Shown here piece after piece: positions 22,101-51,621 of a stretch of 64,000 nt of DNA. The stretch is from Candidatus Pacearchaeota archaeon (GTDB taxonomy: Archaea > Nanobdellota > Nanobdellia > Pacearchaeales > GW2011-AR1), in contig JAGLWM010000005.1 in the NCBI GenBank assembly GCA_023133415.1, forward strand, positions 4,602 to 68,601, given 5' to 3'. Below the pieces are notes generated by a model that was not told the DNA's origin, did not search any database, and saw only the letters and a list, made by a program, of their open reading frames with translations. A program made the translations under genes and the position numbers. How positions within the stretch are numbered: position 1 is the stretch's first letter; each line of letters begins with the position of its first letter.

Positions 22101-22211
22101 TTGAACAATAAACAATTTTCATTTTATTTGAAAGGTTTATTGCTTTACCTAATGTCCATAACCAATCCTTTTCGATTATATGTTTATACATGTTTCTTGA
22201 GTAGATGAATT

Positions 22212-22521: not shown

Positions 22522-22577
22522 TTGATATTTAAGCAGAATAGAGCAAATGTTAAAAACACCTTTTACCAATATTATGT

Positions 22578-24739: not shown

Positions 24740-24740
24740 A

Positions 24741-24923
24741 TTATTTTCTACATATCTTTCCAAACACTCTCCTCAAAACAAACAACTCCCCACTCCTCCA
24801 CTCCGTCAAATCTTCCTTTCCCTCCAAATCCAAACTATCCAAATAAGCCCCCCACAACTCATCCAACAACTTCCCCTCGACAACAATCCGCTTAGGCTCT
24901 ATCATATCCAACCTCCATCTCAT
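24741..24923 (-). CDS. Small hypothetical protein downstream of the integrase
   Basis: 60-aa ORF overlapping the integrase 3' end. Confidence 0.4.
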   Translation of the reverse strand: MRWRLDMIEPKRIVVEGKLLDELWGAYLDSLDLEGKEDLTEWRSGELFVLRRVFGKICRK

Positions 24924-26049: not shown

Positions 26050-26091
26050 AAAAATCTTAGATAAAAATTCTTTATAAAAAACCTATAATGG

Positions 26092-26109
26092 ACCTGTACA
26101 TGTACAGGT
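26092..26109. promoter_or_regulatory. Perfect 18-bp palindrome upstream of the integrase
   Basis: ACCTGTACATGTACAGGT, 43 nt upstream of the integrase start codon. Confidence 0.55.
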
Positions 26110-26151
26110 TCTGTAGGTAATATTTAAATATATATTTTATCTGCATACCTT

Positions 26152-26778
26152 ATGATAAAACAATTGAGTTTTCAAAACTTTTATGTCTTTGAAATAACTC
26201 TAGGAATTTTATCGATATTGGCGGGATTTAGTTACGGAACTCAAATCAGTCCATATTTTTTATTATTGTCATTATTGGGCGGGGGAGTGGTTTTTGATGG
26301 AATAAAAAGGTGGTATGAAGTTCAAAAAAACAAAGAGATATTAGAAGGTTTAGATTTAGATTTTGATATAAAACGTATTGACGCAGAAGCAGATTTGGAA
26401 TTCATCCCCGAAGATATTGTTGATGGACAACCTGTTGGAGAATGGCATACTGAACATAATGTTAAGTATAAGATTGAAATAAATGTTTTTAATCCTTCAA
26501 CTATAGAAAATGTAGTAAGGGACATCAGGGTAGAATTTAAAAAAAATAAACGAATTTCAGATATAGGAATAAAGTCTTCCGAAGATTTAAACAGATTCCC
26601 AATTTCATTAAAAGGAAGAACTCATGAAAGAATTATTTTCCATACCGGTTTTTCAAACACTTTAGGGAAAAAAGGGGACAAATTAAAAATAACTTTGGTT
26701 ACAATAGACAATAAGAAAATTTCTAAGGATATAAAAATTAGCCATTATAGAGAAGGCGAGCAATTGAGAAGAGGGTAA
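26152..26778 (+). CDS. Hypothetical membrane protein
   Basis: Two N-terminal TM segments and a soluble beta-rich C-terminus. Confidence 0.6.
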   Translation: MIKQLSFQNFYVFEITLGILSILAGFSYGTQISPYFLLLSLLGGGVVFDGIKRWYEVQKNKEILEGLDLDFDIKRIDAEADLEFIPEDIVDGQPVGEWHTEHNVKYKIEINVFNPSTIENVVRDIRVEFKKNKRISDIGIKSSEDLNRFPISLKGRTHERIIFHTGFSNTLGKKGDKLKITLVTIDNKKISKDIKISHYREGEQLRRG

Positions 26779-26813
26779 AAGCTCACCAATTTTGTACACT
26801 TTGTACGACCATT

Positions 26814-26824
26814 CGGTTGGGGCG
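26814..26824 (+). repeat. att-like core identical to the tRNA-Asp 3' end, inverted relative to the array
   Basis: CGGTTGGGGCG equals the last 11 nt of the tRNA at 51550-51621. Confidence 0.7.
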
Positions 26825-36832: not shown

Positions 36833-37858
36833 TTATATATTTTTTGGGTAGGCTAGTTTTTCGAGTTTTTCGAGTTCGTCTCTTTTGGATTCTATTTCTG
36901 AGAGTAGGTTTGTGATATGTTGTGCTGCTGTATTTTTAACGTCGAGAGGATGGATGGATTTTTCTTTGACTGCTTTTTCTAGTTCTTCGTAAGTTTGGAA
37001 TTCTAGGTTGCCACCGAATTTTTCTGGACGTTCTATGAGTAGTTTTTCGTTTTTGTCTCGGAGAAGTGTGAATATGATGTATTTGAAAAATGCCATTGTT
37101 CCGTTGTCTGGGTTGCCCTCTTTGAAGTCTGCCAAGTTTACTTTTTTCTGGATTGTTTTTTTATCGTCCATTAATCCTATTTTTGAGGCTTCTATCGATG
37201 AGGACATTTTTTTGCCTATGAGTCCTGGCAGGAAGGGTACCATTAGTTCGATTCGTTTTTTGTATCCGAGTTTTGGCAGTTGTTCTCGCGCTAGAACGAA
37301 AATTTTTCTTTGGTCTATCGCTCCGATTTGCATGTCGACTTTTAGATATTGTTCGTCGAGGGCTTGCATTAGTGGGTAGATGTAGCCAGAGAGTTTTGGG
37401 TTGGTTCCCATTTTTACGACTTCGCTTGCGGCTTTGTGGCAGTCGTGGACTGAGGTCATGCTTGAGAGCTTAAAGATGTCGAGGACGTATTCTTTTGAGA
37501 GTTGGAAGTCGCTTCCTTTTACGAATTCTAGTTTTGTTATGTTGGTGCCCATTGCTTTAATCATTAGTGGGATTATTTTTGAGTAGAAGTTGTATCGGTG
37601 TTCGAGGATTTCCCATGGTGTGTTGTCTAGTGCTGCGTGTAGGTCGGCGATTAGGACTTTGACTCTAAATCCTGCGTTTAGTAGATCTGCAAGTTTTAGT
37701 CCCCAGATGAAATAACCGATGTGTGGGGCTCCTGTTGGTGCGGTTCCGATGTAGACCGAGAGTTCTTTGTTTGATTCGAGGAGTTCTTTGAGTTCGTCTT
37801 CTCCGATTATTTCGGCTGTGTTTCGTTTTATTAGTTCGAATTTTTCTTGGGGGTTCAT
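36833..37858 (-). CDS. tyrS: Tyrosine-tRNA ligase (archaeal type)
   Basis: 'YIGTAPTGAPHIGY', 'YPLMQALD', 'GAIDQRK', 'KMSSS'. Confidence 0.95.
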   Translation of the reverse strand: MNPQEKFELIKRNTAEIIGEDELKELLESNKELSVYIGTAPTGAPHIGYFIWGLKLADLLNAGFRVKVLIADLHAALDNTPWEILEHRYNFYSKIIPLMIKAMGTNITKLEFVKGSDFQLSKEYVLDIFKLSSMTSVHDCHKAASEVVKMGTNPKLSGYIYPLMQALDEQYLKVDMQIGAIDQRKIFVLAREQLPKLGYKKRIELMVPFLPGLIGKKMSSSIEASKIGLMDDKKTIQKKVNLADFKEGNPDNGTMAFFKYIIFTLLRDKNEKLLIERPEKFGGNLEFQTYEELEKAVKEKSIHPLDVKNTAAQHITNLLSEIESKRDELEKLEKLAYPKNI

Positions 37859-37895
37859 GGGAAGATATGGGAGTTGAAGTTTTTAAGGGTTTGTT

Positions 37896-37939
37896 TGGGT
37901 CAATCTTCCCATGAAAAACTTAGATAAAAATTCCTTATA
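37896..37939 (-). pseudogene. Relic of the integrase 5' end (promoter region plus first codons)
   Basis: 40/45 identical (1 gap) to 26032-26076, which spans the start of the intact integrase. Confidence 0.75.
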
Positions 37940-38011
37940 ATAAATTTGTAGCGGTGTTGTAGTGGATTTTGAGATAAAAAGTTTAATAAGTGAGTAAGCC
38001 AATTTATTTAC

Positions 38012-38527
38012 ATGATTTACAATATTGCTTTAGTTTTCGAGGAAAGAATTAATAAGCAGATTCATGATTTTTATGGGATAATTAAAGATAATTTGAATCT
38101 TGAATTTGGTTTAGAGAGTCGATCCATTCCGCATGCTACACTTATAAAATTTGAATCTAAAGAGGAATTGAACTCAGAAAAGCTTTCGAGCATAATTGAA
38201 GACATGGCTGATGATATTAAAGTGGATTTTTCTGGTATCACATTACTTCCTTCTAAATCTTCTATTGACTGCTGGGTAGAGCTATCAATATTAAAAAGCC
38301 AAAAATTAATCGAGATTCAACGAGTTCTCATTAGCAAGTTAAAAGATTATGATATTGTAAGTGGTATTAATGATAGATTTAGGCCGCATATCACTTTTTG
38401 TAAAACTAAAAATTGTGAATTTAATATCATGAATTTGGATTCTTCGCTCTTAAGAAGAGGTGGGGTTAATGCGAGGTTGGTTATTGGTGGTGTCGATTCT
38501 AATTTTGAGTTTTTTGAAATAAGATGA
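38012..38527 (+). CDS. 2H phosphoesterase (2'-5' RNA ligase family)
   Basis: Two HxT motifs: 'PHATL' and 'PHITF'. Confidence 0.85.
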   Translation: MIYNIALVFEERINKQIHDFYGIIKDNLNLEFGLESRSIPHATLIKFESKEELNSEKLSSIIEDMADDIKVDFSGITLLPSKSSIDCWVELSILKSQKLIEIQRVLISKLKDYDIVSGINDRFRPHITFCKTKNCEFNIMNLDSSLLRRGGVNARLVIGGVDSNFEFFEIR

Positions 38528-39018
38528 AATCTAAAATAATAATTGTAGATGAGAAAGATGAGGTAATAGGACATAAATTAAGAGGCACATTAGATAAAGA
38601 AGATATTTATCAAGTATCTGCACTTTGGATTACTAATTCCAAAGGAGAAATTCTTTTAGCTAGACGCCATCATACAAAAACTCATCATCCAAGAAAATGG
38701 GGTCCTGCTGTTGCGGGGACGGTTGATGAGGGTGAGAGTTACTATGATAATATAATTAAGGAAGCGGAAGAGGAATTGGGACTTAGAGATATTGAGCTTG
38801 AACTTGGTCCCAAGAGAGAAACGAATGGGGAGTATCATCATTTTACTCAATGGTATCATTTGGTTATTGATAAAGATATTAACGATTTTACAATACAAGA
38901 AGATGAGGTTGAAGAAATTAAATGGTTTTCTTTAGGAGAATTAGAAAATCAATTAGAGGTAAATCCTGAGGAATTTTTGCCTAAAATGAAAAGCTACTTT
39001 GAGTTATTTAAGTCTTAA
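38524..39018 (+). CDS. NUDIX hydrolase (IDI type 1-like)
   Basis: 'IVDEKDEVIG', 'AGTVDEGESY...IIKEAEEELG'. Confidence 0.85.
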   Translation: MKSKIIIVDEKDEVIGHKLRGTLDKEDIYQVSALWITNSKGEILLARRHHTKTHHPRKWGPAVAGTVDEGESYYDNIIKEAEEELGLRDIELELGPKRETNGEYHHFTQWYHLVIDKDINDFTIQEDEVEEIKWFSLGELENQLEVNPEEFLPKMKSYFELFKS

Positions 39019-39093
39019 CATCCCTCAAAAATCGTAAGAATGTATGTACTTTTTGTCCAGCAAGAATTTCTAAAATATACTAAAATGAGAAGA

Positions 39094-39142
39094 TGTCCCA
39101 ACCGCCGTGGCCGGAGAGATGTGTTTTTGGGGGGTGGACTAA
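39094..39142 (+). repeat. att-like site: degenerate core plus right arm
   Basis: TGTCCCAACCG (9/11 core match) followed by a 38-bp arm 33/38 identical to 44382-44419. Confidence 0.8.
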
Positions 39143-39158
39143 AGGGGTGACCACAGAA

Positions 39159-40085
39159 TCACTTTTTCTTATTTTTTGTAGACACCTCTTTTAGTGTCTT
39201 TTTATATTGCTTAATTAATAATTTAAGAGTAGGTTTTAGGTCGTCCCTTCTTGAATATTCGTATAGTGATTTATAATATTCTTGTCTATCTTCGAGCATA
39301 ATATTTATTGGAGGATAATTATTTTTTAATAATATATAATTTAGTAATAATCTTCCTACTCTCCCATTTCCATCTTGGAATGGGTGAATGTGTTCGAATT
39401 GATTATGTAATATTGCTGCCAGAACTAAAGGTTTGAATTTATTTTGATTTTCTTTATACCATTCAATAAAATCTTTAAGATAATTTCTTAGTTCTTCTTT
39501 TGGAACTCCCGTATGAAGAATTTTTCCTCTTGGGTTTCTTATGGTCACATTAACATTTCTGAATTTCCCAGAAAAAGGCTTTGAGCCTTTAAAACAAAAA
39601 TCGTGTAATTTTAACAATAATTTTAATGATAAATCTTCTTTTGTTTTTCTTATATATTCTATTGCTTTTGCAACACCTTTTATTTCAATTTCTTCTGCAT
39701 TTTCGGCTTTTTTCTTGTGAAGAATTTCTGCAACTTCATTTTCTGCTATCGTAGAACCTTCAATTGCATTAGTGTTATAAACAAAATCTTCTGTAAAATT
39801 TTCCCATTCTTTTTTGCTTAAGTGAGTAATTTTAATTTTATTGTTATAATTATTTAATGTTTCTGTTTGTTTTTTTGTTAATGTAAAAAAGAATACTTTG
39901 GTATTTATTTCTTCAAGTAATTCTAAAATTATTTCTTCAGCTTTTTTCTTTTTTCTTTTTAGTTCTTCTTCTGAGAGATTGACCCCTAAATATCTTCTTA
40001 TTTTTTCAACTTTATTATTTTCTCTGTAGGAATGGACTAAATAATATTTTATATTTTTTCCAGATTTTCTTTTTTCAATATACAT
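39159..40085 (-). CDS. Fic-domain protein
   Basis: Canonical 'HPFQDGNGRVGR' and 'YNTNAIEG'. Confidence 0.93.
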   Translation of the reverse strand: MYIEKRKSGKNIKYYLVHSYRENNKVEKIRRYLGVNLSEEELKRKKKKAEEIILELLEEINTKVFFFTLTKKQTETLNNYNNKIKITHLSKKEWENFTEDFVYNTNAIEGSTIAENEVAEILHKKKAENAEEIEIKGVAKAIEYIRKTKEDLSLKLLLKLHDFCFKGSKPFSGKFRNVNVTIRNPRGKILHTGVPKEELRNYLKDFIEWYKENQNKFKPLVLAAILHNQFEHIHPFQDGNGRVGRLLLNYILLKNNYPPINIMLEDRQEYYKSLYEYSRRDDLKPTLKLLIKQYKKTLKEVSTKNKKK

Positions 40086-40253
40086 GATATATTAAGGGTG
40101 CCCACGTTTATAAATACTTGTAATTTTGTGGTCACTGGGATGATTGCTAGATGTCTATGGAGGAAATAGAAAACAAATTAAATAAGTTTCAATCAATGAT
40201 GGATGCTTTAGAGTTGAGATTGATGAGGAAGCTAATGAACGGAAATGAAAAGA

Positions 40254-40282
40254 CGCCCCAACCGCCGTGACTAGAGATGTGT
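40254..40282 (+). repeat. att-like site: core plus right arm
   Basis: CGCCCCAACCG followed by CCGTGACTAGAGATGTGT. Confidence 0.85.
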
Positions 40283-40515
40283 CTACTTGATGGATGGAGA
40301 AAATTCTAAAGCTCTTTGGTTCTAATTATGCAATCAGTAAAATATGCAGTTTTACAATCGGAACAATAATTTGGGCAATGAACAATAAGGCTGTTTTAGC
40401 ATTTATTTCAGTCATTTCTTTTATTATTATTTTTCGTTCAATTTGAAACTTATTTTAAAAATTCTGTTTAGGTTTTCAAAGAAATATTTATATAGAAAGC
40501 TAATCTAAATAGAGT

Positions 40516-40713
40516 GGAGATAACACAAGTTAACCTTGGAAAGGTTGGGACTTGATAGTAGCTGTCAAATGCTTGACTACGATTGCGGGAATGGACTATA
40601 ACTCCTGCATGAAGATGTGCTTGCTGGTCTATTGGGTTTCGAAAACGGATGGGAAACGGTAATGAGTTGAATTACCCTACCTTTGAAATTTTCTACTGTG
40701 TCCAGTTATCTCC
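40516..40713 (+). ncRNA. Unidentified ~200-nt structured RNA, copy C
   Basis: GGAGATAAC pairs with GTTATCTCC. AACCTT-GGA-AAGGTT hairpin; CAAGTT/GACTTG; TGGAC (40592-96)/GTCCA (40700-04); TTTATATA at 40487-94. Confidence 0.82.
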
Positions 40714-40722
40714 ATTTATAAT

Positions 40723-40821
40723 ATGGTACGAACAAAAACAAAAGAGGCGAAAGTAAAGAAGCTAATTAAAATTGCTAAAGGTTCGAAAAAGAATCAGAAT
40801 AAAGATTTAAAGTGTAGATGA
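40723..40821 (+). pseudogene. Short basic ORF, probable remnant of the gene that follows RNA copy B
   Basis: MVRTKTKEAKVKKLIKIAKGSKKNQNKDLKCR*, starting 9 nt after the RNA (10 nt for copy B). Confidence 0.4.
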
Positions 40822-40848
40822 TTGGGAAATAAATTATTTAATATTCTA

Positions 40849-41020
40849 ATGTTTAAAGATAGAATTGATGCGGGAAAGCAACTTGCGGAGAAGCTTAAAA
40901 TATATAATAAGAGGCGCGATGTGATAATTCTTGGAATTCCACGTGGGGTGTGATTGTTGCGTCTGTTATTTCTAAGGCTCTAAATCTTCCTTTAGATGTT
41001 ATTATTATAAAAAAGATTGT
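40849..41020 (+). pseudogene. Truncated, frameshifted paralog of the PRT gene at 9630-10250
   Basis: MFKDRIDAGKQLAEKLK...ILGIPRG, then a 1-nt deletion, then VIVASVISKALNLPLDVIIIKKI. Confidence 0.85.
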
Positions 41021-41274
41021 TCCTAGAAAATCAGCTATCGGTTTCCAGAAAAAACCTTGAAGCCCTTGGCTATTTGCAAAAATCATATCTAATGAAGCGT
41101 CTAAGATGGCTAGAAGCACTAAAATTATCCATGCCCATAGCTTTGACAAAACCACTTTAGGTTTTTTATTTTCTTTTTTCATGATTTTTTATGGGGCAAG
41201 AGTATAAAATAAAACTCTTATAATAATTAGGAGAGAAAGGTATAAAATGTTTAGAATGAAACTCTAGGATTCCA

Positions 41275-41285
41275 CGCCCCAACCG
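41275..41285 (+). repeat. att-like core
   Basis: Perfect CGCCCCAACCG. Confidence 0.8.
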
Positions 41286-41434
41286 ATAGTAGTAAGGAAA
41301 CTAAGGGTATTCGGTGGGTTTATCCAATCTTAACGAAATTGATTTCCTAGAGATAGGTTACTAGGGGAAGTTGGAAAAATAAGAGGATTGTTTGAACCTA
41401 TCTAGTTTATATAGGCAATTTTTGCTATTATATT

Positions 41435-42760
41435 ATGGAATTTAAATCATTAAAAATCATTGAGCCGATATTGAGGGCTTTGAAAGATAAGGGCTATAGC
41501 GAAGCCACTCCGATACAGGACAAGACTATTCCACTGTTATTGGATGGGAAAGATGTTGTTGGAATTGCCCAAACTGGAACGGGGAAGACTGCTGCTTTTG
41601 CTATCCCTATTTTACAGAAATTGTCCACTGAAGGACAGGGCCCACATGCTTTAATTTTGGCTCCTACAAGAGAGTTGGCTGCCCAGATTGCTGAGGAATT
41701 TAAGGCTTATGGAAAATATTTAAATTTTAATTATCTGGCCGTTTATGGTGGTGTTGGAATTATTCCGCAGATTAAGACATTAAGTCGGGGTGTTGATATC
41801 TTGATTGCTACTCCCGGAAGATTGATTGATTTAATGGATCAGGGGAAAGTTAATTTGAAGAAAGTTGAGTTTCTGGTTTTGGATGAAGCGGATAGAATGC
41901 TTGATATGGGATTTTTAAGAGATGTTAAAAAGATCGTTAAGACCACACCCGAAAAGAAGCAGGTTCTGTTGTTTTCGGCTACTATGTCAAAAGAGATTGG
42001 TGAAATTAGCGAGGAATTTTTGACGAATCCATCCAAGATTCAAATTACTCCGGAATCTACTCCTGTTAACAAAATCGAGCAATGTGTATTTTTTATTGAT
42101 AGGAAGAATAAAGAGGAGTTATTACTGGATTTAATTAAGCAACAAAAAATGAACAAGGTTTTGGTTTTTGTTAGCATGAAGCATAAGGCAAATAAGATTG
42201 CTGTTATTTTAAATAAGAACAAGGTAAATGCTGCTGCTATTCATGGGAATAAATCTCAGTTCCAAAGAGAGAAAGCCTTGAGGGAATTTAAATCTGGGGC
42301 GGTTAGTGTTTTGGTTGCGACTGATATTGCAGCGAGAGGTATTGATGTTTCTAATATTTCACATGTTGTTAATTATGATTTGCCTAATGAGCCTGAGAAT
42401 TATGTTCATCGGATTGGAAGAACTGCTAGGGCTGGAACTAAAGGTGTTGCTTATTCTTTTTGTGAAGCTGCAGATAGAAATTATTTGAATCAGATTGAGA
42501 GGGTTATTAAAAAGAAACTTGAACATGCTGGGCATAAGTGGCACAGTGTTAACGCCAAAAGTGCTGAGGCTAAACCTAAACCTAGGGGCCAGGGTATTGG
42601 TCGAGGACGAGGTAGAGATAAAAGAAAGACTGGCGGTGGAAAGAGTAAAGGTGCTGTCAAAAACAAAGTTAGAAGCAGGGGTAGAGGAGCAAAGTTTGGA
42701 CGAGGTAAAGCTTCTGGCTCTAGGAGAGTTGCTATGGGACGAACTAGAAGTCGAAGATAA
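41435..42760 (+). CDS. DEAD-box RNA helicase (RhlE-like, bacterial type)
   Basis: 'AQTGTGKT', 'PTRELA', 'DEAD', 'SAT', 'ARGID', 'HRIGRTAR'; basic Gly/Arg tail. Confidence 0.95.
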   Translation: MEFKSLKIIEPILRALKDKGYSEATPIQDKTIPLLLDGKDVVGIAQTGTGKTAAFAIPILQKLSTEGQGPHALILAPTRELAAQIAEEFKAYGKYLNFNYLAVYGGVGIIPQIKTLSRGVDILIATPGRLIDLMDQGKVNLKKVEFLVLDEADRMLDMGFLRDVKKIVKTTPEKKQVLLFSATMSKEIGEISEEFLTNPSKIQITPESTPVNKIEQCVFFIDRKNKEELLLDLIKQQKMNKVLVFVSMKHKANKIAVILNKNKVNAAAIHGNKSQFQREKALREFKSGAVSVLVATDIAARGIDVSNISHVVNYDLPNEPENYVHRIGRTARAGTKGVAYSFCEAADRNYLNQIERVIKKKLEHAGHKWHSVNAKSAEAKPKPRGQGIGRGRGRDKRKTGGGKSKGAVKNKVRSRGRGAKFGRGKASGSRRVAMGRTRSRR

Positions 42761-42870
42761 AACAACGCAAATAAGACCATTCTATTTTAATATTCATAAT
42801 AGTTTCACAGGATAACATTTAAAATTATTTGCATTTCCTTCGGCTCCCATTAACCATACAATATAAAATA

Positions 42871-42930
42871 ACCACAAAGCTTACAGCGTACACCCATGAA
42901 TGTTTCAAAAGTGCTGAACGCCCCAATCGG
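42871..42930 (+). repeat. att-like site: left arm plus core
   Basis: 51/60 identical to 51502-51561; core CGCCCCAATCG at 42919-42929. Confidence 0.88.
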
Positions 42931-42945
42931 TCTTCTAACTTTTTG

Positions 42946-43977
42946 TTAGACCCCCAAAATATTATTATCGTTAATATATTTTTGAACTAATTTGATGGCA
43001 TCATCATTAAAATGAGTTTTAAGCCCTTCTTCTATCTTAACCCATTTCCACTCCTTGAATTTTTCGGGTTCCATCAATATTGGCTCTCCATCAATAGAAC
43101 AATAAAAAAGATGAACTATATCATCCTTCCAAGACCCTTTTATCTCTCCAATAAAATCAAGAATCTTAAAATCTGAGCTTTTTATTCCGATTTCTTCAAA
43201 CACTTCTCGCTTTAAGGCTTCTCCAATTGTTTCACCCTTGTCACACCTACCTCCGGGAAAATTCCAAACAGATAACTCCTTTTCCTGATATACCCTATTT
43301 CCCAATAATACACTTCCATCCCTTATTATTATGGCAGCAGTGCAATTATTTTCCATTGCCCTGATATTAAGAACCTTATTTAATGTTAAATTTTCATTGA
43401 ATGGAATTATTCCAAAATCCATAGTCTCTGCTTTATGTTGCATCCGTTCATTTATTGTAACCCCTTTTCTTTTTGAAACGTTTTTTGCAGACTCTATATT
43501 GTTTACCTTAAATTTTCGATTTCTTAAAGCTTCAATTCCCTCTTTTCCAATTAGCTCATTATTTTTGATATTAAATGCAAGTGCTTGTATAGTAAATGGC
43601 ACTCCTTCTAACATGTTTTCTATCGTTGGTTTAAGCTTCTTCTTAGCAATATACTCATGTTCAGAAATTGGGAATATATCAACCTCTACATTTCCCTTCT
43701 TAAAAGTAGGATTACCAAATTTTTGATATGAAACTTCCCATCCCTCACTTGCAGTTATTTTTTCATTTAACTTATCAACAACAAAGTCAAAATCATTTGT
43801 TTCTTGCGAACCACCATAAAGTTCTCTTGCCAAAGTTCTACTTACAGCCCCTCCAATAATGTAGATATTCCCTTCTGAATTTTCCTTAACTAATGAGATA
43901 ATTTCTTTATACTCCTGTATCTCTCTTAACTTTTTAACTAAGATTTCTGAGAGGGATTTTTCATCAAATTTGACCAT
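42946..43977 (-). CDS. Fusion of a CCA/poly(A)-polymerase-like nucleotidyltransferase head and a NUDIX hydrolase
   Basis: 'YIIGGAVSR..DFDF', 'PFTIQALA'; NUDIX box 'PGGRCDKGETIGEALKREVFEEIG'. Confidence 0.78.
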   Translation of the reverse strand: MVKFDEKSLSEILVKKLREIQEYKEIISLVKENSEGNIYIIGGAVSRTLARELYGGSQETNDFDFVVDKLNEKITASEGWEVSYQKFGNPTFKKGNVEVDIFPISEHEYIAKKKLKPTIENMLEGVPFTIQALAFNIKNNELIGKEGIEALRNRKFKVNNIESAKNVSKRKGVTINERMQHKAETMDFGIIPFNENLTLNKVLNIRAMENNCTAAIIIRDGSVLLGNRVYQEKELSVWNFPGGRCDKGETIGEALKREVFEEIGIKSSDFKILDFIGEIKGSWKDDIVHLFYCSIDGEPILMEPEKFKEWKWVKIEEGLKTHFNDDAIKLVQKYINDNNILGV

Positions 43978-44370
43978 AATTAGAAGAATAGTTCAGGGTA
44001 TAATAATCTAACTAATCTTAATCAGATTTATTGGAGGCTTCTTCAATTCTATGCCTCTCTTCTCAGTGCTTCTCAAAATTTTCTCTAAGTTCCTTATTAT
44101 TTGGGTTTCTTAAAGCAATAACATATTCTTTGAAGTCTTCTTCAATTTCACCTAAAAATAAGATAGGGTTTATTTTTATCATCCCTCCAAATTCATTTAG
44201 AAATTGAATTGTAATATCTTTATTATATTTATTAAATTCGTGGAGGCCATAATCATCTTCTTTGGTGTTTTCTCAGACTATTTTATGACGGTTAATGTCT
44301 CTCTCTCTGCCATAAAAAATAGACACAAATTTCACTTAATAAGATTTAGAGTGTATAACATATAGTTAAA

Positions 44371-44419
44371 CGCCCCAACCGCCGTGACTGGAGAGATGTG
44401 ATTTTGGTGGGTGGATTAA
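44371..44419 (+). repeat. att-like site: core plus right arm
   Basis: CGCCCCAACCG followed by CCGTGACTGGAGAGATGTGATTTTGGTGGGTGGATTAA. Confidence 0.88.
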
Positions 44420-44433
44420 TAATATTACAAGAC

Positions 44434-45108
44434 TTAGATAATTTCTACAATCTCACCAATATTATTTTTTAGAGAGTAAAGCATTGGAGGTCTATGTGAT
44501 ACATTTTTCTTTAATTCTTCTTCCCTTAGAATATTAAGTGAAATAATTTTCTTGGCAAAATTTCTTTTATCAAATCTTTTATTAAAAACGATTTCATAGA
44601 TTTTTTGTATCTGGCTTATTGTAAATTTTTGTGGAAGTAAGGAAAAGGCGACAGTTGTATATTCAAACTTCCATTTTAATCTTTTTAAGGAATAGTCTAA
44701 AATCTTTTTGTGATCAAAGGCGAGAGTGGGAATTTTTTTAACTGAAAACCACTTAACGTCTGAAACGTCTGTTGTTGCTTTCAGTTTGATATTTTCAGAA
44801 TTTGTAAGAGCCATATATGCAACAGTTATTACTCTTCCCCTGGGATCTCTTTTTATATCTCCAAAACTAAACAACTGCTCAAGATAAACATTCTGCACAC
44901 CTGTTTCTTCTTTTAATTCTCTTTTAGCGGCATCTTCTAAGGACTCGTCCATTCTAACAAAACCCCCCGGAAGTGCCCATTTCTCCCTAAAGGGATTAAT
45001 ATCTCTCTTCACAAAAAGAACTTTTAGTTCGTCCTCCCTAATCGTAAATATAACTATATCCACAGTTAAAGATGGCTTTCCAAAATTATGTATATTTTCC
45101 TCTTTCAT
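44434..45108 (-). CDS. nrtR: NrtR-family regulator (NUDIX plus winged-helix domain)
   Basis: 'WALPGGFV...AAKRELKEETG', 'YLEQLFSFG..RDPRGR', 'LAFDH', 'FDKRNFAKK'. Confidence 0.9.
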   Translation of the reverse strand: MKEENIHNFGKPSLTVDIVIFTIREDELKVLFVKRDINPFREKWALPGGFVRMDESLEDAAKRELKEETGVQNVYLEQLFSFGDIKRDPRGRVITVAYMALTNSENIKLKATTDVSDVKWFSVKKIPTLAFDHKKILDYSLKRLKWKFEYTTVAFSLLPQKFTISQIQKIYEIVFNKRFDKRNFAKKIISLNILREEELKKNVSHRPPMLYSLKNNIGEIVEII

Positions 45109-45143
45109 GTTGTTGGTAAAACAATAAGATATTTAAATTTACC

Positions 45144-45923
45144 CTAGAATCCCTCAATCACTCTTAACGGCTTTTCTGATAATTTAATTTCAACAATATC
45201 TCCTTCATTAAAATCGTACAATTTAAATCCGATTGCAATTATTCCACCAGAATCTCTTTTTGATTCAAAAGAAATTTTTTCATCAGATAAAATATCTCCC
45301 CCTAAAACTGTCGAAACATAAACTCTTTCTCCATAATATGGCTCTCTAACTATAAAGCCAAGTTTTTTTTCGTTTGCATTGAATTGTTTTCCACCCGCAG
45401 ACTTAAACCAGCCACTAGAGCCAGTTCCAGTAGAAATAATAACTCCCGAACTTCGCTGTTCTTCCTTCTTGTCCCTATAGTTAATTATATATCTGGAAGT
45501 ATGAAAATTATTTTCCGCACCAACATAAACCTCATTAGAAGCACGCTCATCTAAAACTTCGCCGTTTAACTTTACCTTCGCCCTCTGTCTCTCAATAACA
45601 TTAAGTTCCCTATTTAATATCTCTTCTAACTTCCCTACTTCATTCATAGATAAGCTTGTCAGTGCTCCTTCACTTGAGCTCGGATGAGAATTTATTCCCA
45701 AGATATAAGAATCTTCTATTCGATTAGCAGCCTCTATAAATGTGCCATCTCCACCAAGAGTTATCACCAAATCTGCATTATGCATTTTTTCCTTCTTTAA
45801 ATTATCATAAAAAGTCCAGAAAAAATCAAATCCGTTCAATGCCTTCATTAGCTTTTTAGAACTTTCTAGGTGTTCACTGGTATTCTTCTTACTTTCAACA
45901 ACAACAACTTTTTCAAATTTCAT
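45144..45923 (-). CDS. nadK: NAD kinase
   Basis: 'LGGDGT', 'NE', 'STGTGSSGW..SAGG'. Confidence 0.88.
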   Translation of the reverse strand: MKFEKVVVVESKKNTSEHLESSKKLMKALNGFDFFWTFYDNLKKEKMHNADLVITLGGDGTFIEAANRIEDSYILGINSHPSSSEGALTSLSMNEVGKLEEILNRELNVIERQRAKVKLNGEVLDERASNEVYVGAENNFHTSRYIINYRDKKEEQRSSGVIISTGTGSSGWFKSAGGKQFNANEKKLGFIVREPYYGERVYVSTVLGGDILSDEKISFESKRDSGGIIAIGFKLYDFNEGDIVEIKLSEKPLRVIEGF

Positions 45924-46342
45924 TTTTTATTTCCAAATTTAGTTATATAATCATCTAATATTTTCTTATGATCAAAAGCTAAGTCTGGTAAGTCGTCTAA
46001 TGGGAAAAATCTCGCGTCTTTTGCATCGTCAGCGGCCCTAAGCTCTCCGCTAAAATTTTTTACAACATAAACATGGGTAATGTAATGTCCTCTTGGGTCT
46101 CTATCTGGCTCTGAATAAGCTCCAACTAGTTCAAGGTCAGAAAGATTTACTTTTAAGTTTGTTTCTTCAAATAATTCTCTCGCAGCAGCTTTCTCGGTTG
46201 TTTCTTCCCCATAATTAATATGTCCTCCTGGAAATGCCCACATATCTCTGAATGGCTTAATCTCTCTTTTAATTAAAAGAATTTGGCTTTGTTTTTTAAC
46301 AACGATATCTACAGTTGTACAAGGATTTCTATACTCGGTCAT
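45920..46342 (-). CDS. NUDIX hydrolase (ADP-ribose pyrophosphatase-like)
   Basis: 'FPGGHINYGEET..AAARELFEET', 'RDPRGH', 'LAFDH'. Confidence 0.88.
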   Translation of the reverse strand: MTEYRNPCTTVDIVVKKQSQILLIKREIKPFRDMWAFPGGHINYGEETTEKAAARELFEETNLKVNLSDLELVGAYSEPDRDPRGHYITHVYVVKNFSGELRAADDAKDARFFPLDDLPDLAFDHKKILDDYITKFGNKK

Positions 46343-46895
46343 TGTAAAGTCCCTCCCTAATTATATAATTTTCCACTTCCGTGAAAACTAATCTAGAGAT
46401 AGGTTTGCCCTTAGCAACTCTCTCTCTTATCTCCGTCGAAGATACTTCAAAAAAAGATCCTCTTTGGACTGTCATATCTTGGGGTTCTTTTCGAATTAAA
46501 TAGCCTTTTCTTTCGAAAACAAGGAAGTTAACTAGCTCCACCAATTCTTCATTCTTTTTCCAGTAGGGCAAATCAGGTAAAACATCAGAACCAATAATGA
46601 AATAAAAATCATGGTTGAATTCTTTCTTTAATTTCCGTACAGTATCAATAGTATAATTAATACCTTTAGAATTCAGTTCAACACGATTAATTTTGACACT
46701 ATCTATTTCTTTAATTGCATATTCAATCATCCTAATCCTTTGCTCAGAATTTAAAAGATTCTTACCAAAGGCATGTTCTTTACAAGGAATAATCCATACC
46801 TCTTCGACAACCTTGGATTCTAAAGTTTTATTGATAACTTCTATATGAGACTTGTGAATAGGATTAAAGCTACCGCCAAAAAGTCCTACTTTCAT
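46329..46895 (-). CDS. nadD: Nicotinate-nucleotide adenylyltransferase (bacterial NadD type)
   Basis: 'GGSFNPIH..H', 'YTIDT', 'IIGSD', 'VSSTEIR'. Confidence 0.92.
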   Translation of the reverse strand: MKVGLFGGSFNPIHKSHIEVINKTLESKVVEEVWIIPCKEHAFGKNLLNSEQRIRMIEYAIKEIDSVKINRVELNSKGINYTIDTVRKLKKEFNHDFYFIIGSDVLPDLPYWKKNEELVELVNFLVFERKGYLIRKEPQDMTVQRGSFFEVSSTEIRERVAKGKPISRLVFTEVENYIIREGLYNDRV

Positions 46896-47731
46896 TTTTC
46901 CACCTCATAAGATAAATTTAGTTCACCAATTAGGGGAATCTCTCTCTTGTGCTGCGTAATCCTGTGTCTTCTTGCCACATCATTAATAATTTCTTTCTTA
47001 AATCCTGTAATTTTTTGGATTTGTATTGAGGTATACTCCTGATCAAATCCATTTTGAATCAGTTCTGCCTGCTCGTAAGTATATCCGAGTTCTCTTTCAT
47101 CAGTCTGTCCCTTCCACAAGGCTGCAGTTGGAACCCTATTAACGAGATCTTCTGACACACCCAAATGTTTTGCCAAATCTTTCACTAATCTTTTTGGAAT
47201 ATTGCCCAAGATATTATTATCGACGGCACCATCCCCTCTTTTAGTAAAATACCCTAAAACATAATCCTCATCCTTGTTTCCTGTTCCCATCACTCTGCAG
47301 TTTTTAGCTGCAGCTACTCTGCTCAAAACGACTGCCCTTACTTCAGAATATAAATTACCTCTATGAAATTCTCCCTTAATGTCTAGGATTTGGTGTGCAA
47401 ATGCTTCAGCTATCGGTTCAATTGGAATAACCAGTGATTCAATTCCAATATTTTTTGCTACTCTTAAGCCATCCTGTCTATCTACTTCACGATTTGCATT
47501 TGAGGGCATTATGACGCCATAAAGTTGTAATGGATTATTTAGATTTTCCTGATTATACATATTAAAAGCGTAATTGCACAGGTAGGCAATTGTTGTCGAA
47601 TCAACACCACCGCTTAAACCAACAACGCCACCGTCCGCACCAGTTCCTTTCGTAAACCTAATTATTTCTCTAGCTAATTCGTCGATTGCCTTTTCTACAC
47701 CATTAGTAAAATATGCTCTTTTTATTTTCAT
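46892..47731 (-). CDS. nadE: NH3-dependent NAD synthetase
   Basis: 'GLSGGVDS', 'GTGNKDE..LGYFTKRGDG', 'PTAALWKGQTDE.ELG'. Start set at the ATGA overlap. Confidence 0.93.
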   Translation of the reverse strand: MKIKRAYFTNGVEKAIDELAREIIRFTKGTGADGGVVGLSGGVDSTTIAYLCNYAFNMYNQENLNNPLQLYGVIMPSNANREVDRQDGLRVAKNIGIESLVIPIEPIAEAFAHQILDIKGEFHRGNLYSEVRAVVLSRVAAAKNCRVMGTGNKDEDYVLGYFTKRGDGAVDNNILGNIPKRLVKDLAKHLGVSEDLVNRVPTAALWKGQTDERELGYTYEQAELIQNGFDQEYTSIQIQKITGFKKEIINDVARRHRITQHKREIPLIGELNLSYEVEK

Positions 47732-48642
47732 TTTTCTGCCTCCAATAAATACGGAGTTAAACACAGCCTACAAAATTTATCTCCTCGCATAAATTCCTCA
47801 ATTTTATCATCTGTATTAGCAAGCAAAAAAACATCACTAACCTTTAGATTCAAATCATGCTTTTCATTTATTTCCTTAATTATCTTTTCTTGTATCGGTC
47901 TATATTTTTTGTACAACTGTCCTGGCTTAATTCTATCCAGAATTCTATCAGTTACAACTAACGAAAAAATATTCTTAAACCACTTATTCGCAATCAATGT
48001 TTTTAGAGGTTTTCTGGTAAAGGTAAAACCTGATCTTAGGTAATACATGCCAAACGGCTTACTCATTGAAGCAACAACCGCGACTACATTGGGATGGCTA
48101 ACATCAATTGCGTAGTGTCTCGTCATACCTAAATATGCTAGGTCATAAATCACCTTGTGGGTCTCACAAATTTTCTCGACCACTTCATTCTTTATTATAT
48201 TACCGTCTCTACCAGAAGGATTCGATATAAAAAAATATCCTGGTTTCAATTTCGTAAAATCCTCGTCCTCATCAACTTCGACAATTTTTATATTGAGTCG
48301 AGTTGCATATTCTGAGTAACCCTCATACTCTCCGTCGAGAACATACACTACCACATCCGGGTTTTTTGTCTTAATTTCAGCAAGTAAATGAAATATACCC
48401 TGCCGCGATCCATCTGTAGAATAACTGTATTTAAAATCTTTCAATGCGGGGACATCGGCGGCATAATACTTGACAAATTTCTTGATAATCGGCTTGTCAA
48501 AATCATCCAAACCCGGATCAATTGAGCTTAAAAAAACGTCGTGTGGAAATTTTTCCGAAACTTCATCTATCACTTTCCTAACCTCAGGAAAATAATAACA
48601 ATAAACTCCCCTAATTGCATTCAGCTTATTCCGATTCTTCAT
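47728..48642 (-). CDS. PLP-dependent enzyme (class I/II aminotransferase fold, short)
   Basis: 'TDGSRQG', 'SNPSG', 'YDLAY', Schiff-base Lys in 'SMSKPFG..LRSG'. Confidence 0.75.
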   Translation of the reverse strand: MKNRNKLNAIRGVYCYYFPEVRKVIDEVSEKFPHDVFLSSIDPGLDDFDKPIIKKFVKYYAADVPALKDFKYSYSTDGSRQGIFHLLAEIKTKNPDVVVYVLDGEYEGYSEYATRLNIKIVEVDEDEDFTKLKPGYFFISNPSGRDGNIIKNEVVEKICETHKVIYDLAYLGMTRHYAIDVSHPNVVAVVASMSKPFGMYYLRSGFTFTRKPLKTLIANKWFKNIFSLVVTDRILDRIKPGQLYKKYRPIQEKIIKEINEKHDLNLKVSDVFLLANTDDKIEEFMRGDKFCRLCLTPYLLEAEK

Positions 48643-49505
48643 ATTAAAATTGCCCCCTTATATTGCCAGTCATATCTTAGATGTCCATCTGGGAAAAAGA
48701 TAATTTGTCGAACATCTTCCTTGCTTGATTCAATTGTTAATGCATTTGTCAAGCAAATATTTTGACCCTCAAAATCATAAATAACGGCTCCATGAGCAAG
48801 CGTAAGCAACTGATTTCCATTTTTCCTAATAAATGATTCAATCTTATCGTAATCATCGTCACTAAGTATATTGTTTATTGTCCACTCATAAACTTTCTTA
48901 CATTTAGATTTCTGTGGTACCGCAAGTTTCCTAAGGCTTAATTGTTCAACATTCCATTTCTTGGTTATCTCTATCAAAGCTCTTGCTTCGTTTTCACTAT
49001 CTACAAAACCCTTAATTAAAGTACAGCTAAATCTCACAGTATATCCAATCGCATGTAACTTGTCAACCAGTTTTTCCAAATCAATATATTCTCTATGTGG
49101 GGTAAAAATTTCCTTATTTTTTCCCTTATCATAATGAGCAATTGAAATCGCAATGGTGGTCAAGCCAAGCTTATACCATTCCTCTAAATGTTTATTGTAT
49201 TTCTTATCCAATAGAACAATTCCATTCGTCTGAATCTCAATAAAAGGAAACTCGAATCTTTTTAACTTCATTAAAAACTCTGTAATTTGTTCTGGAAAAA
49301 GAGTCGGTTCACCCTTACCTGTTATTAACACAGTACTCACACTATTCATCTTGGCAAAATTGCAGGCTTTCTCAAAATTTCTCCAATTAACAACTGGTTT
49401 CTCTTTGCCAATACCTTGTTTTGGAGTCATCTGGGAAACACAATAAGGACATTTGGCATTACAAGCCGAACTTCCTGCAACAATTGTAAATGTCTGTATT
49501 TTCAT
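48639..49505 (-). CDS. Radical SAM protein of unknown function
   Basis: 'CNAKCPYC' (CxxxCxxC), 'ITGKGEPT', 'EIQTNG'. Confidence 0.9.
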   Translation of the reverse strand: MKIQTFTIVAGSSACNAKCPYCVSQMTPKQGIGKEKPVVNWRNFEKACNFAKMNSVSTVLITGKGEPTLFPEQITEFLMKLKRFEFPFIEIQTNGIVLLDKKYNKHLEEWYKLGLTTIAISIAHYDKGKNKEIFTPHREYIDLEKLVDKLHAIGYTVRFSCTLIKGFVDSENEARALIEITKKWNVEQLSLRKLAVPQKSKCKKVYEWTINNILSDDDYDKIESFIRKNGNQLLTLAHGAVIYDFEGQNICLTNALTIESSKEDVRQIIFFPDGHLRYDWQYKGAILI

Positions 49506-50155
49506 ATTCTATCCTCTAAGATATTTTTAGTTGTTGTAAAATTAACTCCGGCATTTTTCCACTTTTCTAAAACTTTTTCGGTATCCAGGGGAGTTCCTGC
49601 TAGGTCTGGTAAATCTTTCATGGCGTCTATAATCGCGTAAACTGTCCTTCCTCTCTCAATGTTACCCATTACAGCGAAATCATTGCAAGCATTTAACGCA
49701 ACACCGTAAATTATAATCTTATCAGGATTCAAAATATTTATAGCCTTAGCAGCCAACGGATTACCGGCAAAAACATCAAACTTGTATTTTTCTATAACAA
49801 GATTTTCTGCTTCTCTTAATTTCTTAGTGTCTATTTTTTTTGCATCTCTTGTTAATCTGTATAGGTTTTCGGGACGAGTTGCAGGAACATATTCTGCACC
49901 ACGAGTATTTGCCATGCAATGAGGTGGATATGTATCTACAAAGTTTGGATTTTCTGCGTCAATCTCGTCATCTTCTAAAGTATGCCAATCTGCCGTATTC
50001 ACCACATAAATTTCATTTTGCTTAGCATATTTTGTCAGCTTGGCTAGATTGTCTTCTATTCCTCTCGCATTTGGAACTGGTAATGCACCCTTGAAGCTTT
50101 CGTCATCTCTCATAAAATCATACTGAGTATCTACATTCCAAAATATTTTTTTCAT
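49502..50155 (-). CDS. pncA: Nicotinamidase (isochorismatase fold)
   Basis: 'VDTQYDF', 'DWH', 'PPHC', 'GVALNAC'. Confidence 0.85.
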   Translation of the reverse strand: MKKIFWNVDTQYDFMRDDESFKGALPVPNARGIEDNLAKLTKYAKQNEIYVVNTADWHTLEDDEIDAENPNFVDTYPPHCMANTRGAEYVPATRPENLYRLTRDAKKIDTKKLREAENLVIEKYKFDVFAGNPLAAKAINILNPDKIIIYGVALNACNDFAVMGNIERGRTVYAIIDAMKDLPDLAGTPLDTEKVLEKWKNAGVNFTTTKNILEDRI

Positions 50156-51300
50156 AAGATTTCCTCCAACCTATCACCAGGCAATTCCGTTCGACCAACT
50201 TTTGAGTTAGGAATCCAAATCTGTTTATTCTCATCAAAATATGCACAAATGTCAGACGTTGTCATTATCAAATTTTTTAATCCAAAACTTCCAGTCCCAA
50301 TCGCATCAAATAAAGGCTTGTCATACATTTTCTGATAAATTTTATCAGCTTCTATGAAAGCCGTAGTTTTATTTGCATTAAAGCCACTTGATACAAACAA
50401 TTTTAGATTGCCCAGGTCAGCATTGTCTAAACCTTTTCTCAGACCCCAAACACTTGCTATTGTAACACCTTTGCCTTGTTTATATTTTTTGGAAACATTT
50501 AATTTTGGAAGTTTAACATTCTGGCTCGCTTCTGTATAATTTTCACCACAAGTATCAATTCTAGTTCCAGAAACTGGTATACCTTCTCTTGCAGTCTCAA
50601 CTATGTCTGACAATTCTCGGTTAAATGTGCAACCTAAGATTGTTCGAGGAACTTCTTTTGTTATATGTTTATCAAAAGCTTTTGCGGCCTCAACAGTTGG
50701 ATTACCATCAATATTATTTTGCTCCATGTGTGCTTTATAGGCTAAGAATAGTGCATGGGGTGTTGTTCCCAATCCTACGTTACCCCAAGCCTTAGCGCCA
50801 ATATCTGTTGATGTTCCAGCGAAGCCTTCTTCTTGGCAAATTTTTGCGATTTCTGGGATTAGGTGTGGAGCGAAATGTCGTGCGCTAAAATCAAAAACCG
50901 GCTTACCCTCAGCAGCCTGATAAATATCCCTTGCACCCTGTCTTAAAGCATCCAAATCAACGTCCCCGGTTAAAGCACCAGAAGTTATACTCAAATAAAT
51001 TGTCTCAAGATCAATATAATCCTGAACCCGTCCCTCCATCTTTATCATAGATTCCCCAGTAGCGTACTTCTGACCATTCTTAAGAGTATAAACCTTCCCC
51101 CTATCTCCAACAGAATTCTTAATAAAAGCTGCAGCCTCATCCACTCCCTCAAGCTCGGCAACATCTCGTCTAGCAAAAACCTGATACCTCACAATCGGAT
51201 TAATATTCTCAGCCTCTAATATTTCTTTACTTCGAAGGAAATACTTGTCGGTATATTCTAGACGTTTTTCAATTATTTGTGTTTGTGTTGTGTTTACCAT
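50152..51300 (-). CDS. pncB: Nicotinate phosphoribosyltransferase-like protein
   Basis: 'TDKYF', 'DFSARH', 'GTTPHA', 'RIDTCGE', 'VSSGF', 'KVGR'. Confidence 0.8.
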   Translation of the reverse strand: MVNTTQTQIIEKRLEYTDKYFLRSKEILEAENINPIVRYQVFARRDVAELEGVDEAAAFIKNSVGDRGKVYTLKNGQKYATGESMIKMEGRVQDYIDLETIYLSITSGALTGDVDLDALRQGARDIYQAAEGKPVFDFSARHFAPHLIPEIAKICQEEGFAGTSTDIGAKAWGNVGLGTTPHALFLAYKAHMEQNNIDGNPTVEAAKAFDKHITKEVPRTILGCTFNRELSDIVETAREGIPVSGTRIDTCGENYTEASQNVKLPKLNVSKKYKQGKGVTIASVWGLRKGLDNADLGNLKLFVSSGFNANKTTAFIEADKIYQKMYDKPLFDAIGTGSFGLKNLIMTTSDICAYFDENKQIWIPNSKVGRTELPGDRLEEIL

Positions 51301-51308
51301 AAGTTATT

Positions 51309-51366
51309 GTATGATATACACTATATAAAGACTATTGTGATTAAGTATATGTATTATTTACACTAA
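51309..51366. promoter_or_regulatory. Two candidate NrtR operators (GT-N7-AC) flanking the pncB TATA box
   Basis: GTATGATATACACTA (51309) and GTATTATTTACACTA (51351), 42 bp apart, on either side of a minus-strand TTTATATA at 51322-51329. Confidence 0.6.
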
Positions 51367-51501
51367 GTATGAGATAAATATTAAAGAATTTACCTAAAAA
51401 ACTATCACGCCCTACCTGGGTGTCTCAAATTCAACCAATTTCCATTTCCACCATTTCTTAAAAATTTGTAAAAATTGATGTCAGCAACGATAAACTAGAT
51501 G

Positions 51502-51560
51502 ACCACAACACTTATAACGTCCACCCATGAAAGTTTCAAAAGTCCTGTACGCCCCAACCG
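51502..51560 (+). repeat. att-like site at the tRNA: left arm plus core
   Basis: The core 51550-51560 is the tRNA 3' end; the arm is duplicated at 42871-42918. Confidence 0.88.
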
Positions 51561-51621
51561 GGGATTGAACCCGGATCTCGGCCGCGACAGGGCCGTGTAC
51601 TAACCACTATACTATTGAGGC
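51550..51621 (-). tRNA. tRNA-Asp(GTC), CCA not encoded
   Basis: GCCTCAA/TTGGGGC acceptor stem, CGGCC-CTGTCGC-GGCCG anticodon arm, GTTCAAT T-loop, G discriminator. Confidence 0.97.

Follow-up and report, generated by a model that had tools for sequence, protein, structure and literature searches.

Stacked copies of the tRNA-Asp 3' end in a Pacearchaeota genome point to an accretion island of integrase-less and decayed units

DPANN archaea have tiny genomes with patchy metabolic capacities, and the ways in which they acquire and lose genes are, to our knowledge, poorly understood. Here, we describe a stretch of 64,000 nucleotides from a Candidatus Pacearchaeota archaeon (the window, positions 4602-68601 of contig C17), in which 13.7 kb between tRNA-Asp and the gene of a Tyr/Trp-type tRNA synthetase (TyrRS) is divided by copies of the tRNA 3' end into six units, A to F, listed in the tRNA sense from tRNA-proximal to distal. 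We think it likely that this locus is a tRNA-Asp accretion island, composed of nonautonomous and decayed units of one integrase family. The genome's sole genes for NadE, NMNAT and NAD kinase, each present in a single copy, lie in one att-flanked unit behind the tRNA (unit A), and most of the genus lacks them.

Results

Junctions derived from tRNA-Asp

The last 11 nt of tRNA-Asp (CGGTTGGGGCG in the tRNA sense, CGCCCCAACCG on the plus strand) recur through the island, as a preliminary description of the sequence had noted. This core is exact in the tRNA itself (51550) and at 44371, 41275 and 40254, has one mismatch at 42919 and two at 39094, and reads in the tRNA sense at each of these places. 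With up to one mismatch allowed, the window holds six core matches where 0.14 are expected, a count that was reached by 0 of 100 shuffles, and beyond the array the whole genome has just one more exact core, which lies inverted at 26814-26824, 765 bp from an intact integrase gene (24892-26049). Direct repeats derived from the tRNA bound the units and the tRNA gene is regenerated intact, the mark by which integrative elements are recognized (Table 1). Split-tRNA or tRNA-half genes were ruled out: just 11 nt recur, no T-arm accompanies them, and a single tRNA is found by ARAGORN and Rfam.

The window belongs to a metagenome-assembled genome (MAG) of 21 contigs, 0.84 Mb (836 kb), ~36% G+C and 86% completeness, which we compared with 49 genomes of the genus (below, G numbers designate genomes, C numbers contigs and L numbers loci). 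We used ARAGORN and Rfam for tRNA and noncoding RNA, Pfam for proteins, and tblastn for integrase traces.

Arms shared between units and between species

We call P' arm the stretch that follows a core in the tRNA sense and P arm the stretch that precedes it. Two arm types are reused within the island, as had been claimed for a left and a right arm, here named P'-A and P1. P'-A begins at 51549 and 42918 and runs downward, and 42868-42930 is 84% identical to 51499-51561 over 63 nt including the core. P1 occurs at 39105, 40265 and 44382 (three pattern matches against 0.01 expected), with 89% identity over 46 nt between the copies at 39097-39142 and 44374-44419. The short left flank reported to be common to 39094 and 40254 is also present there, as AAATGAGAAGA and AAATGAAAAGA. 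The shared length is ~49-70 nt in all P'-A copies and ~45-58 nt in all P1 copies, and outside this stretch even two autonomous elements diverge from one another.

The P'-A module of unit A contains TGGGTGGA, an inverted repeat of the P1 motif, as well as TTATCGTTGCTG and a partial core repeat ending in GGGCGT, while the P1 arm of the same unit carries TCCACCCA 26 nt from the core. Inverted repeats therefore stand on either side of the core in the window, in the arrangement TCCACCCA-N26-core-N22-TGGGTGGA, and in G058 a perfect 17-bp inverted-repeat pair flanks the core. The motifs TTATCG(A/T)CGCTG and GGGCGT recur in P' arms, and it is plausible from their sequence that they are protein-binding sites.

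Beyond this genome, P'-A and P1 are found in at least 10 genomes and 32 metagenome loci. In unit A, P'-A is 87-98% identical to arms of G008, G011, G018, G015 and G045 and of the 32 metagenome loci, and P1 is 91% identical to the P1 arm of an integrase-bearing element of G045. The partners found on the opposite side of the core vary widely and include the tRNA itself. Arm identity amounts to 85-98% across species whose TyrRS proteins share 54-82% identity, and the cargo between the arms is unrelated. This reuse of conserved arms around unrelated cargo is consistent with a reliance of the units on an integrase encoded at another locus, as had been proposed. None of the 32 loci retrieved by scanning metagenomes for the core plus P'-A is a small circular contig, and the same scan of IMG/VR gave no match.

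A family of tyrosine integrases behind tRNA genes

The integrase encoded at 24892-26049 is a tyrosine recombinase (PF00589) that keeps all but one of the 86 near-invariant positions of its family, and its closest match among solved structures is only XerA (E 0.002). Our search of the literature found no description of this family. A second member (69% identical) is encoded in the same genome by an 8.2-kb element located behind tRNA-Glu (C1:45909-54195) and bounded by 12-nt direct repeats, CGGTGGGAGCGT. Homologues occur in records named Pacearchaeota, Woesearchaeota or Nanoarchaeota, and many public MAGs and metagenomes contain the family and the arm types. Our scan of public genomes for integrase relatives yielded 165 loci encoding one. 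In 26 of the best 80 of these 165, the integrase is preceded by a tRNA gene at less than 400 nt (Asp 12, Glu 5, Ser 4, Gly 2, Gln 2, Met 1).

Within the genus, the family is found 60-180 nt behind tRNA-Asp in G005, G011, G012, G015 and G017, and 146 nt behind it, reversed, in G013. Several same-strand cores on one contig, spaced by 0.14-35 kb, occur in 16 of the 49 genomes, against about zero for a reversed-pattern control, and cores with one mismatch are frequent in these arrays. Because core copies flank integrases and stack in relatives, we consider them to be attL/attR-type junctions that result from serial integration at one tRNA 3' end. The earlier assignment of the repeats to a tyrosine-integrase system acting at the tRNA-Asp 3' end is supported by the presence of the same family behind tRNA-Asp in relatives.

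Two elements carry the arm pair of unit A together with an integrase. Those of G015 (C6:129271-153617, 24.3 kb) and G045 (C1:330480-357313, 26.8 kb) open with a P'-A arm and close with an inward-reading integrase, ~1.3-1.7 kb, a P1 arm and a core. None of the six units of the island, in contrast, encodes an integrase of its own: a tblastn search of 37-52.5 kb found no integrase similarity (best E 0.03), in line with the recombinase-free intervals described before, and a search for integrase remnants behind P'-A arms with seven family members (tblastn, E up to 20) recovered only the relic in unit F described below. Intact integrase genes have the core either 45-225 nt upstream or at a distance of more than 400 nt. 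An integrase split by integration, as in elements of the Sulfolobus spindle-shaped virus (SSV) type, was ruled out: the open reading frames (ORFs) that cross the cores are 9-21 aa long and unrelated to integrases, and the integrases of relatives are intact beside the core.

Arrays of relatives also illustrate the size and the content of the units. G059 has an array of six to seven units of 0.66-2.5 kb, three of which bear near-identical P2 arms, and in G007 a 144-bp "empty" unit (L077, C17:7600-7754) has nothing between its two exact cores except one P' and one P arm. Fic, ParE/AbrB, HEPN/NTase, NYN, GNAT, 2H and NUDIX are the cargo types found among the units, a set typical of accessory or addiction genes. 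In G043, a 1.6-kb unit without an integrase carries a RelA_SpoT gene that shares 91% identity with its counterpart in a 3.2-kb integrase-bearing unit of G058; the P4 arm is common to both, and the G043 unit has a different P' side and a mutated core. Judged by these sequences, the comparison shows the G043 unit to be a deletion derivative of an integrase-bearing one.

The six units and their cargo

The coordinates of the island are collected in Table 1. The cargo list of the preliminary description was confirmed by Pfam, with the exception of the "NTase" half of the protein encoded at 42946-43977, for which there is no Pfam match, and no Rfam family matches the noncoding RNA that had been proposed.

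Table 1. Features of the tRNA-Asp island, its distal flank and element X (window positions)
Feature	Position	Strand	Content	Basis
tRNA-Asp(GTC)	51550..51621	-	intact, single gene	ARAGORN; Rfam RF00005 63.5 bits
tRNA core	51550-51560	-	last 11 nt, attL side of unit A	
P'-A arm module, unit A	51400..51549	-	first 49-70 nt after core conserved	
Unit A	51549-44382		P'-A module, 75 nt, nine-gene operon, 8 nt, P1 arm	
Unit A cargo	44434..51300	-	NAD(P) salvage operon, nine genes	Pfam
Junction 2	44371..44426	-	exact core 44371-44381, P1 arm of unit A 44382-44426	
Unit B	42930..44370	-	single gene 42946-43977, NUDIX domain and N-terminal half without Pfam match; arms unique	
Junction 3	42868..42929	-	core with one mismatch CGATTGGGGCG 42919-42929, P'-A arm of unit C 42868-42918	
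Unit C	42918-41286		P'-A arm, DEAD helicase, P5-type arm (...ACTACTAT)	
Unit C cargo	41286..42867	+	DEAD-box helicase 41435-42760, antisense to tRNA	Pfam
Junction 4	41275..41285	-	exact core	
Unit D	40265..41274	-	no intact gene; degenerate P1 arm 40265-40305 at end	
Junction 5	40254..40264	-	exact core	
Unit E	39105..40253	-	P'E arm 40156-40253, 12 nt, Fic module 39146-40143, 3 nt, P1 arm 39105-39142	
Junction 6	39094..39104	-	core with two mismatches CGGTTGGGACA	
Unit F, truncated	37880..39093	-	P'F arm 39004-39093; NUDIX 38524-39018 (+); 2H phosphoesterase 38012-38527 (+); integrase relic	
TyrRS	36833..37858	-	class I Tyr/Trp-type tRNA synthetase, conserved host flank at distal end	Pfam
Element X	21372..26824	+	5.45 kb, carries intact integrase 24892-26049 (-)	

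The operon of unit A has its own regulator and its own upstream region, and it encodes, according to Pfam, a phosphoribosyltransferase (PRT)-like protein, an isochorismatase/PncA-like protein, a radical SAM protein, an aminotransferase, NadE, NMNAT, a NUDIX protein, NAD kinase and NrtR. With PRT in 3 and NadE in 4 of the 49 genomes, the NAD genes are present in only three to four of them, and the cargo is accessory. At the level of nucleotides, 44435-51379 is 73-75% identical to a chromosomal operon of G041, which was considered as a further att-flanked unit and rejected, as it is syntenic and near tRNA-Tyr but has no flanking tRNA-derived repeats. The radical-SAM and aminotransferase pair stands in the middle of the operon of unit A and is kept in G041 (75-83% aa identity).

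Among the other units, C carries a helicase that is a paralogue (43% identical) of a gene on contig C19, and its P'-A/P5 arm pairing recurs in G058:C9. Unit D corresponds to the host locus at 8.4-9.8 kb of the window, of which it is a partial, collapsed copy (40827-41017 is 79% identical to 9609-9799, and 40515-40544 corresponds to 8423-8452). The Fic gene of unit E spans 39159-40085, and its module is 85% identical in nucleotides to one on G018:C14, where a different arm (P3) follows. The P'E arm (~100 nt) is 94% identical both to an arm of L088 and to C1:49815-49910, a junction-like site inside the tRNA-Glu element of the same genome, where the arm comes after a degenerate Asp-like core.

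Unit F ends at 37880-37962 in a relic composed of an integrase upstream region and ~8 frameshifted codons, fused ~20 nt from the TyrRS start; the sequence of this fusion suggests that TyrRS may be transcribed from the former integrase promoter. The P'F arm is 76-81% identical to the arm behind tRNA-Glu on C1 and to one in G058, and the two integrases of the genome match the arm type of this truncated unit. In G052, a 100%-complete genome, tRNA-Asp is followed on contig C6 by a 24-kb element, a distal core and, 766 nt farther on, TyrRS in the same orientation.

Discussion

A probable accretion island behind tRNA-Asp

The reading that we favor, and hold to be likely, is that of an accretion island. 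It would have been built through repeated site-specific integration at the tRNA-Asp 3' end, by enzymes of a tyrosine-integrase family that is widespread in Pacearchaeota/Woesearchaeota-like DPANN archaea. Crossover would occur inside the 11-bp core, at a presumed point within it, and every integration would restore the tRNA and add one core copy, such that each interval would represent a single integrated unit, its P' arm following the proximal core and its P arm preceding the distal one. Newcomers would insert beside the tRNA and displace older units toward TyrRS, the probable order of arrival. Units A, B, C and E would be compact, nonautonomous modules of att arms plus cargo, unit D a pseudogenized relic, and unit F what is left of an integrase-bearing element after a deletion up to the TyrRS start. 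To move again, a unit would depend on an integrase provided in trans, or in cis by a neighbor that has newly accreted.

The preliminary description had raised the possibility that the intervals are decayed remnants of larger autonomous elements, and this holds in part. The marks of decay are the integrase relic of unit F, the relic cargo of unit D and the mutated cores at junctions 3 and 6 (two of six), to which the deletion derivative in G043 can be added. An origin by deletion from an autonomous element is seen for unit F, and units A, B, C and E have no backbone relic.

Several observations weigh against the accretion reading. Of the 40 complete units in the arrays of the genus, 37 carry no integrase. 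Units A and E are very clean: their cargo stops 8 nt short of a conserved arm boundary in A, and 3 and 12 nt short of such boundaries in E, and since such limits are hard to obtain by random deletion, this hints that integrase-less units are perhaps a maintained, mobile class rather than debris. Element X, with its inverted core and coreless left arm, is not explained by simple accretion. Finally, the strain is known from one sample only: an exact-protein look-up (NUDIX fusion, Fic, TyrRS, ORF707) led back to that sample alone, with the genes in identical order.

A working cassette store?

The preliminary description went further and saw in the locus an integron-like platform for gene capture. 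In a reading along these lines, which strikes us as possible but rather unlikely, the tRNA-Asp-derived cores would form a working store at which integrase-less minicircles, each with its cargo and a conserved attP of P arm, core and P' arm, are inserted, excised and shuffled by an integrase acting in trans. That enzyme could come from a transient element, or be encoded by element X or by the element behind tRNA-Glu on C1. More generally, and with equally modest confidence, Pacearchaeota-like DPANN archaea might run an integron-like gene-cassette economy from lambda-type att sites, with the tRNA-Asp 3' end as its store; the modules would consist of cargo, P and P' arms of ~50-150 nt and an 11-bp core, and would perhaps be moved by the integrases of larger sister elements. 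Such a store would account for arm modules whose sharp boundaries hold family-wide and which remain 85-98% identical between species around unrelated cargo, for the proximity of cargo and arms in units A and E (3-75 nt), for the predominance of integrase-less units, for the small units with near-identical P2 arms in G059, for the arms-only unit of G007, and for the many single-gene units of kinds typical for chromosomal integron cassettes (Fic, ParE/AbrB, HEPN/NTase, GNAT, NUDIX, NYN).

Against it, two of the six cores are mutated, which bars clean recombination for units B/C and E/F, and units D and F are relics. In a tree of 93 family members, the P1-linked integrases of G015, G045, G021 and L140 form one clade (100/99 support), whereas the window integrase, the C1 integrase and that of L088 form a separate one (100/99 support). 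As both integrases of the genome fall outside the P1 clade, this 86%-complete genome lacks a cognate of the P1 arms, and the window integrase, which had been put forward as the helper, is of a different clade from the P1-linked enzymes. Moreover, the platform has no resident integrase, no attI-type site and no common promoter, and its cargo lies on both strands, unlike the co-oriented, promoterless cassettes of integrons. The window integrase scores 23.9 bits on TIGR02249, for which the cut-off is 265, and is thus no IntI, and for the junctions and the reconstituted attP sites, folding is no stronger than in shuffled sequences (z -0.60, -0.72, +0.58 and +0.42), which leaves no attC-like structure (z -0.7 to +0.6).

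The same folding result, together with the lack of an Rfam match, speaks against the idea that the core-plus-arm repeats are a dispersed functional element (a small RNA, a terminator or a regulatory site) or chance matches. Although an identity of 11 nt is short and the arms hold short inverted repeats, the excess of matches over expectation, the confinement of the array copies behind tRNA-Asp, always in the tRNA sense, and the like junctions that flank integrase genes in many genomes make this very improbable and bring it close to refutation.

An assembly artefact, in which the assembler would have joined strain variants into a chimera or collapsed repeats, is still less credible: the region does look hard to assemble, since many contigs of relatives stop just behind tRNA-Asp, but a second MAG record (GCA_030630825.1) is 100% identical to the locus over 21 kb, and two Logan contigs of SRR13892600, 100% identical to the window, span junctions 1-5 and junctions 6-7, with a sole break at 40222-40237 within a 96-nt repeat, so that independent contigs cross all junctions. 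Among the 18 contigs of relatives that bear tRNA-Asp, 11 end at most ~2 kb behind it, which suggests strain heterogeneity or repeats at this place in many populations.

Comparison with known systems

The locus is a tandem tRNA island, CIME-like or tycheposon-like, and an integron is excluded on the ground that IntI, attC-like folding and a common orientation are all absent. Integrons, including those of archaea (PMC9668308), resemble the island in their ordered array of small, recombinase-free and often single-gene units bounded by recombination sites, and in their accessory cargo of toxin-antitoxin and NUDIX/GNAT type. In the island, by contrast, IntI, attI and attC hairpins are lacking, and the recombination sites are of the double-stranded att type, carry arms and stem from the 3' end of a tRNA.

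A closer parallel is offered by the cis-mobilizable elements (CIMEs) of bacteria, for which tandem accretion at tRNA and other att sites has been described (Pavlovic et al. 2004; Bellanger et al. 2011; PMC5704250). Like CIMEs, the units retain attL and attR, lack recombination and transfer genes, and stack at an att site that is regenerated at the 3' end of the target gene; decay by deletion is likewise visible here, in unit F and in the comparison of G043 with G058. As the units share their arm types with autonomous elements of sister species, they are comparable to CIMEs or satellites. The likeness has its limits, since the host is an archaeon of the DPANN group, conjugation modules are absent, the arms are sharply modular, and the units are much smaller (0.14-7 kb) and in many cases hold a single gene.

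Tycheposons build islands at tRNA genes of Prochlorococcus (bioRxiv 10.1101/2020.12.28.424599) and share with the present locus a streamlined genome, tyrosine-recombinase elements at tRNA 3' ends, and tandem elements parted by partial tRNA copies. In tycheposon islands incoming elements displace older ones inward, as they would here, and in both systems the cargo is of niche or metabolic character and intact elements make up only the smaller part of the island. The two systems belong to different domains of life and differ in their integrase family, no replication module is seen here, and minimal autonomous members measure just 2.7-3.2 kb, with an integrase and one to two cargo genes.

In archaea, integrated elements and "gene capture" at tRNA genes have been reported (She et al. 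2001, 2004; PMC8371274), and the last of these, a review of archaeal tyrosine recombinases, documents tandem integration at one locus and integrase-less elements, which it reads as the result of integrase loss. Integration into a tRNA gene, tandem arrangement at one locus and integrase-less members are thus common to those elements and ours, whereas, unlike in SSV-type elements, the core is here not part of the integrase gene, which remains intact. PMC8371274 makes no mention of DPANN, Nanoarchaeota or Woesearchaeota.

If the integrase-less units proved to be mobile, they would provide a simple and testable archaeal system of gene capture, based on a core of 11 bp, short arms of defined extent and an integrase of 385 aa. 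If they proved immobile, the locus would still be a clear archaeal counterpart of CIME and tycheposon-type islands, and would account for the many "integrase-less cassette arrays" at tRNA genes of archaea. Should the less probable cassette economy exist, whole pathways such as NAD salvage would be held as removable cassettes in reduced genomes.

Element X and further members of the family

Element X, whose integrase is the nearest to the island and lies 11 kb beyond it, contains a membrane ORF, a ribbon-helix-helix (RHH) gene, a 441-aa ORF, a Dam-type methyltransferase, the integrase and ORF208. The other integrase loci have no homologues of ORF208, the 441-aa ORF or the methyltransferase. Its right end consists of a P7 arm and the exact core that is inverted relative to the array; its left end (21372-21405), which directly follows a BadF/BcrA-type host gene, is a P' arm without a core that matches the arm behind tRNA-Asp in G004 at 29 of 32 positions. 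A single inversion that would return element X to the array was rejected, as no inversion between existing cores yields a clean ancestral state. Because the left end has a P' arm and no core, element X is possibly an off-target insertion; an integrase-linked rearrangement, as described in Thermococcales (PMC5495485), is the other possibility. Between element X and TyrRS (27207-31597), purQ, found in 3 of the 49 genomes, and an adjacent purL-type gene are accessory, and this block may be old island material.

Some members of the family depart from the arrangement seen in the window. The minimal autonomous units of 2.7-3.2 kb (L031 in G013:C22, L074 in G058:C3 and L087 in G018:C25) have no replication gene and combine the integrase with one or two cargo genes, namely an AAA_14/DUF4143 ATPase, a RelA_SpoT protein or a HEPN/NTase pair. 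In the G018 lineage (L078 in G018:C14; L201/L203), a core-bounded array lies upstream of tRNA-Asp and faces away from it, and a different integrase (37% identical) is found on the 3' side of the tRNA. The arrays of G059:C9 have no tRNA at their head. Close homologues of the integrase also occur on contigs labelled Phycisphaerae, Omnitrophota, Saccharibacteria, Gammaproteobacteria and Bdellovibrionales (L159, L161, L113, L162, L092 and L158), one of which, labelled Phycisphaerae, is 734 kb long; these bacteria-labelled contigs are probably mislabelled or mis-binned DPANN DNA.

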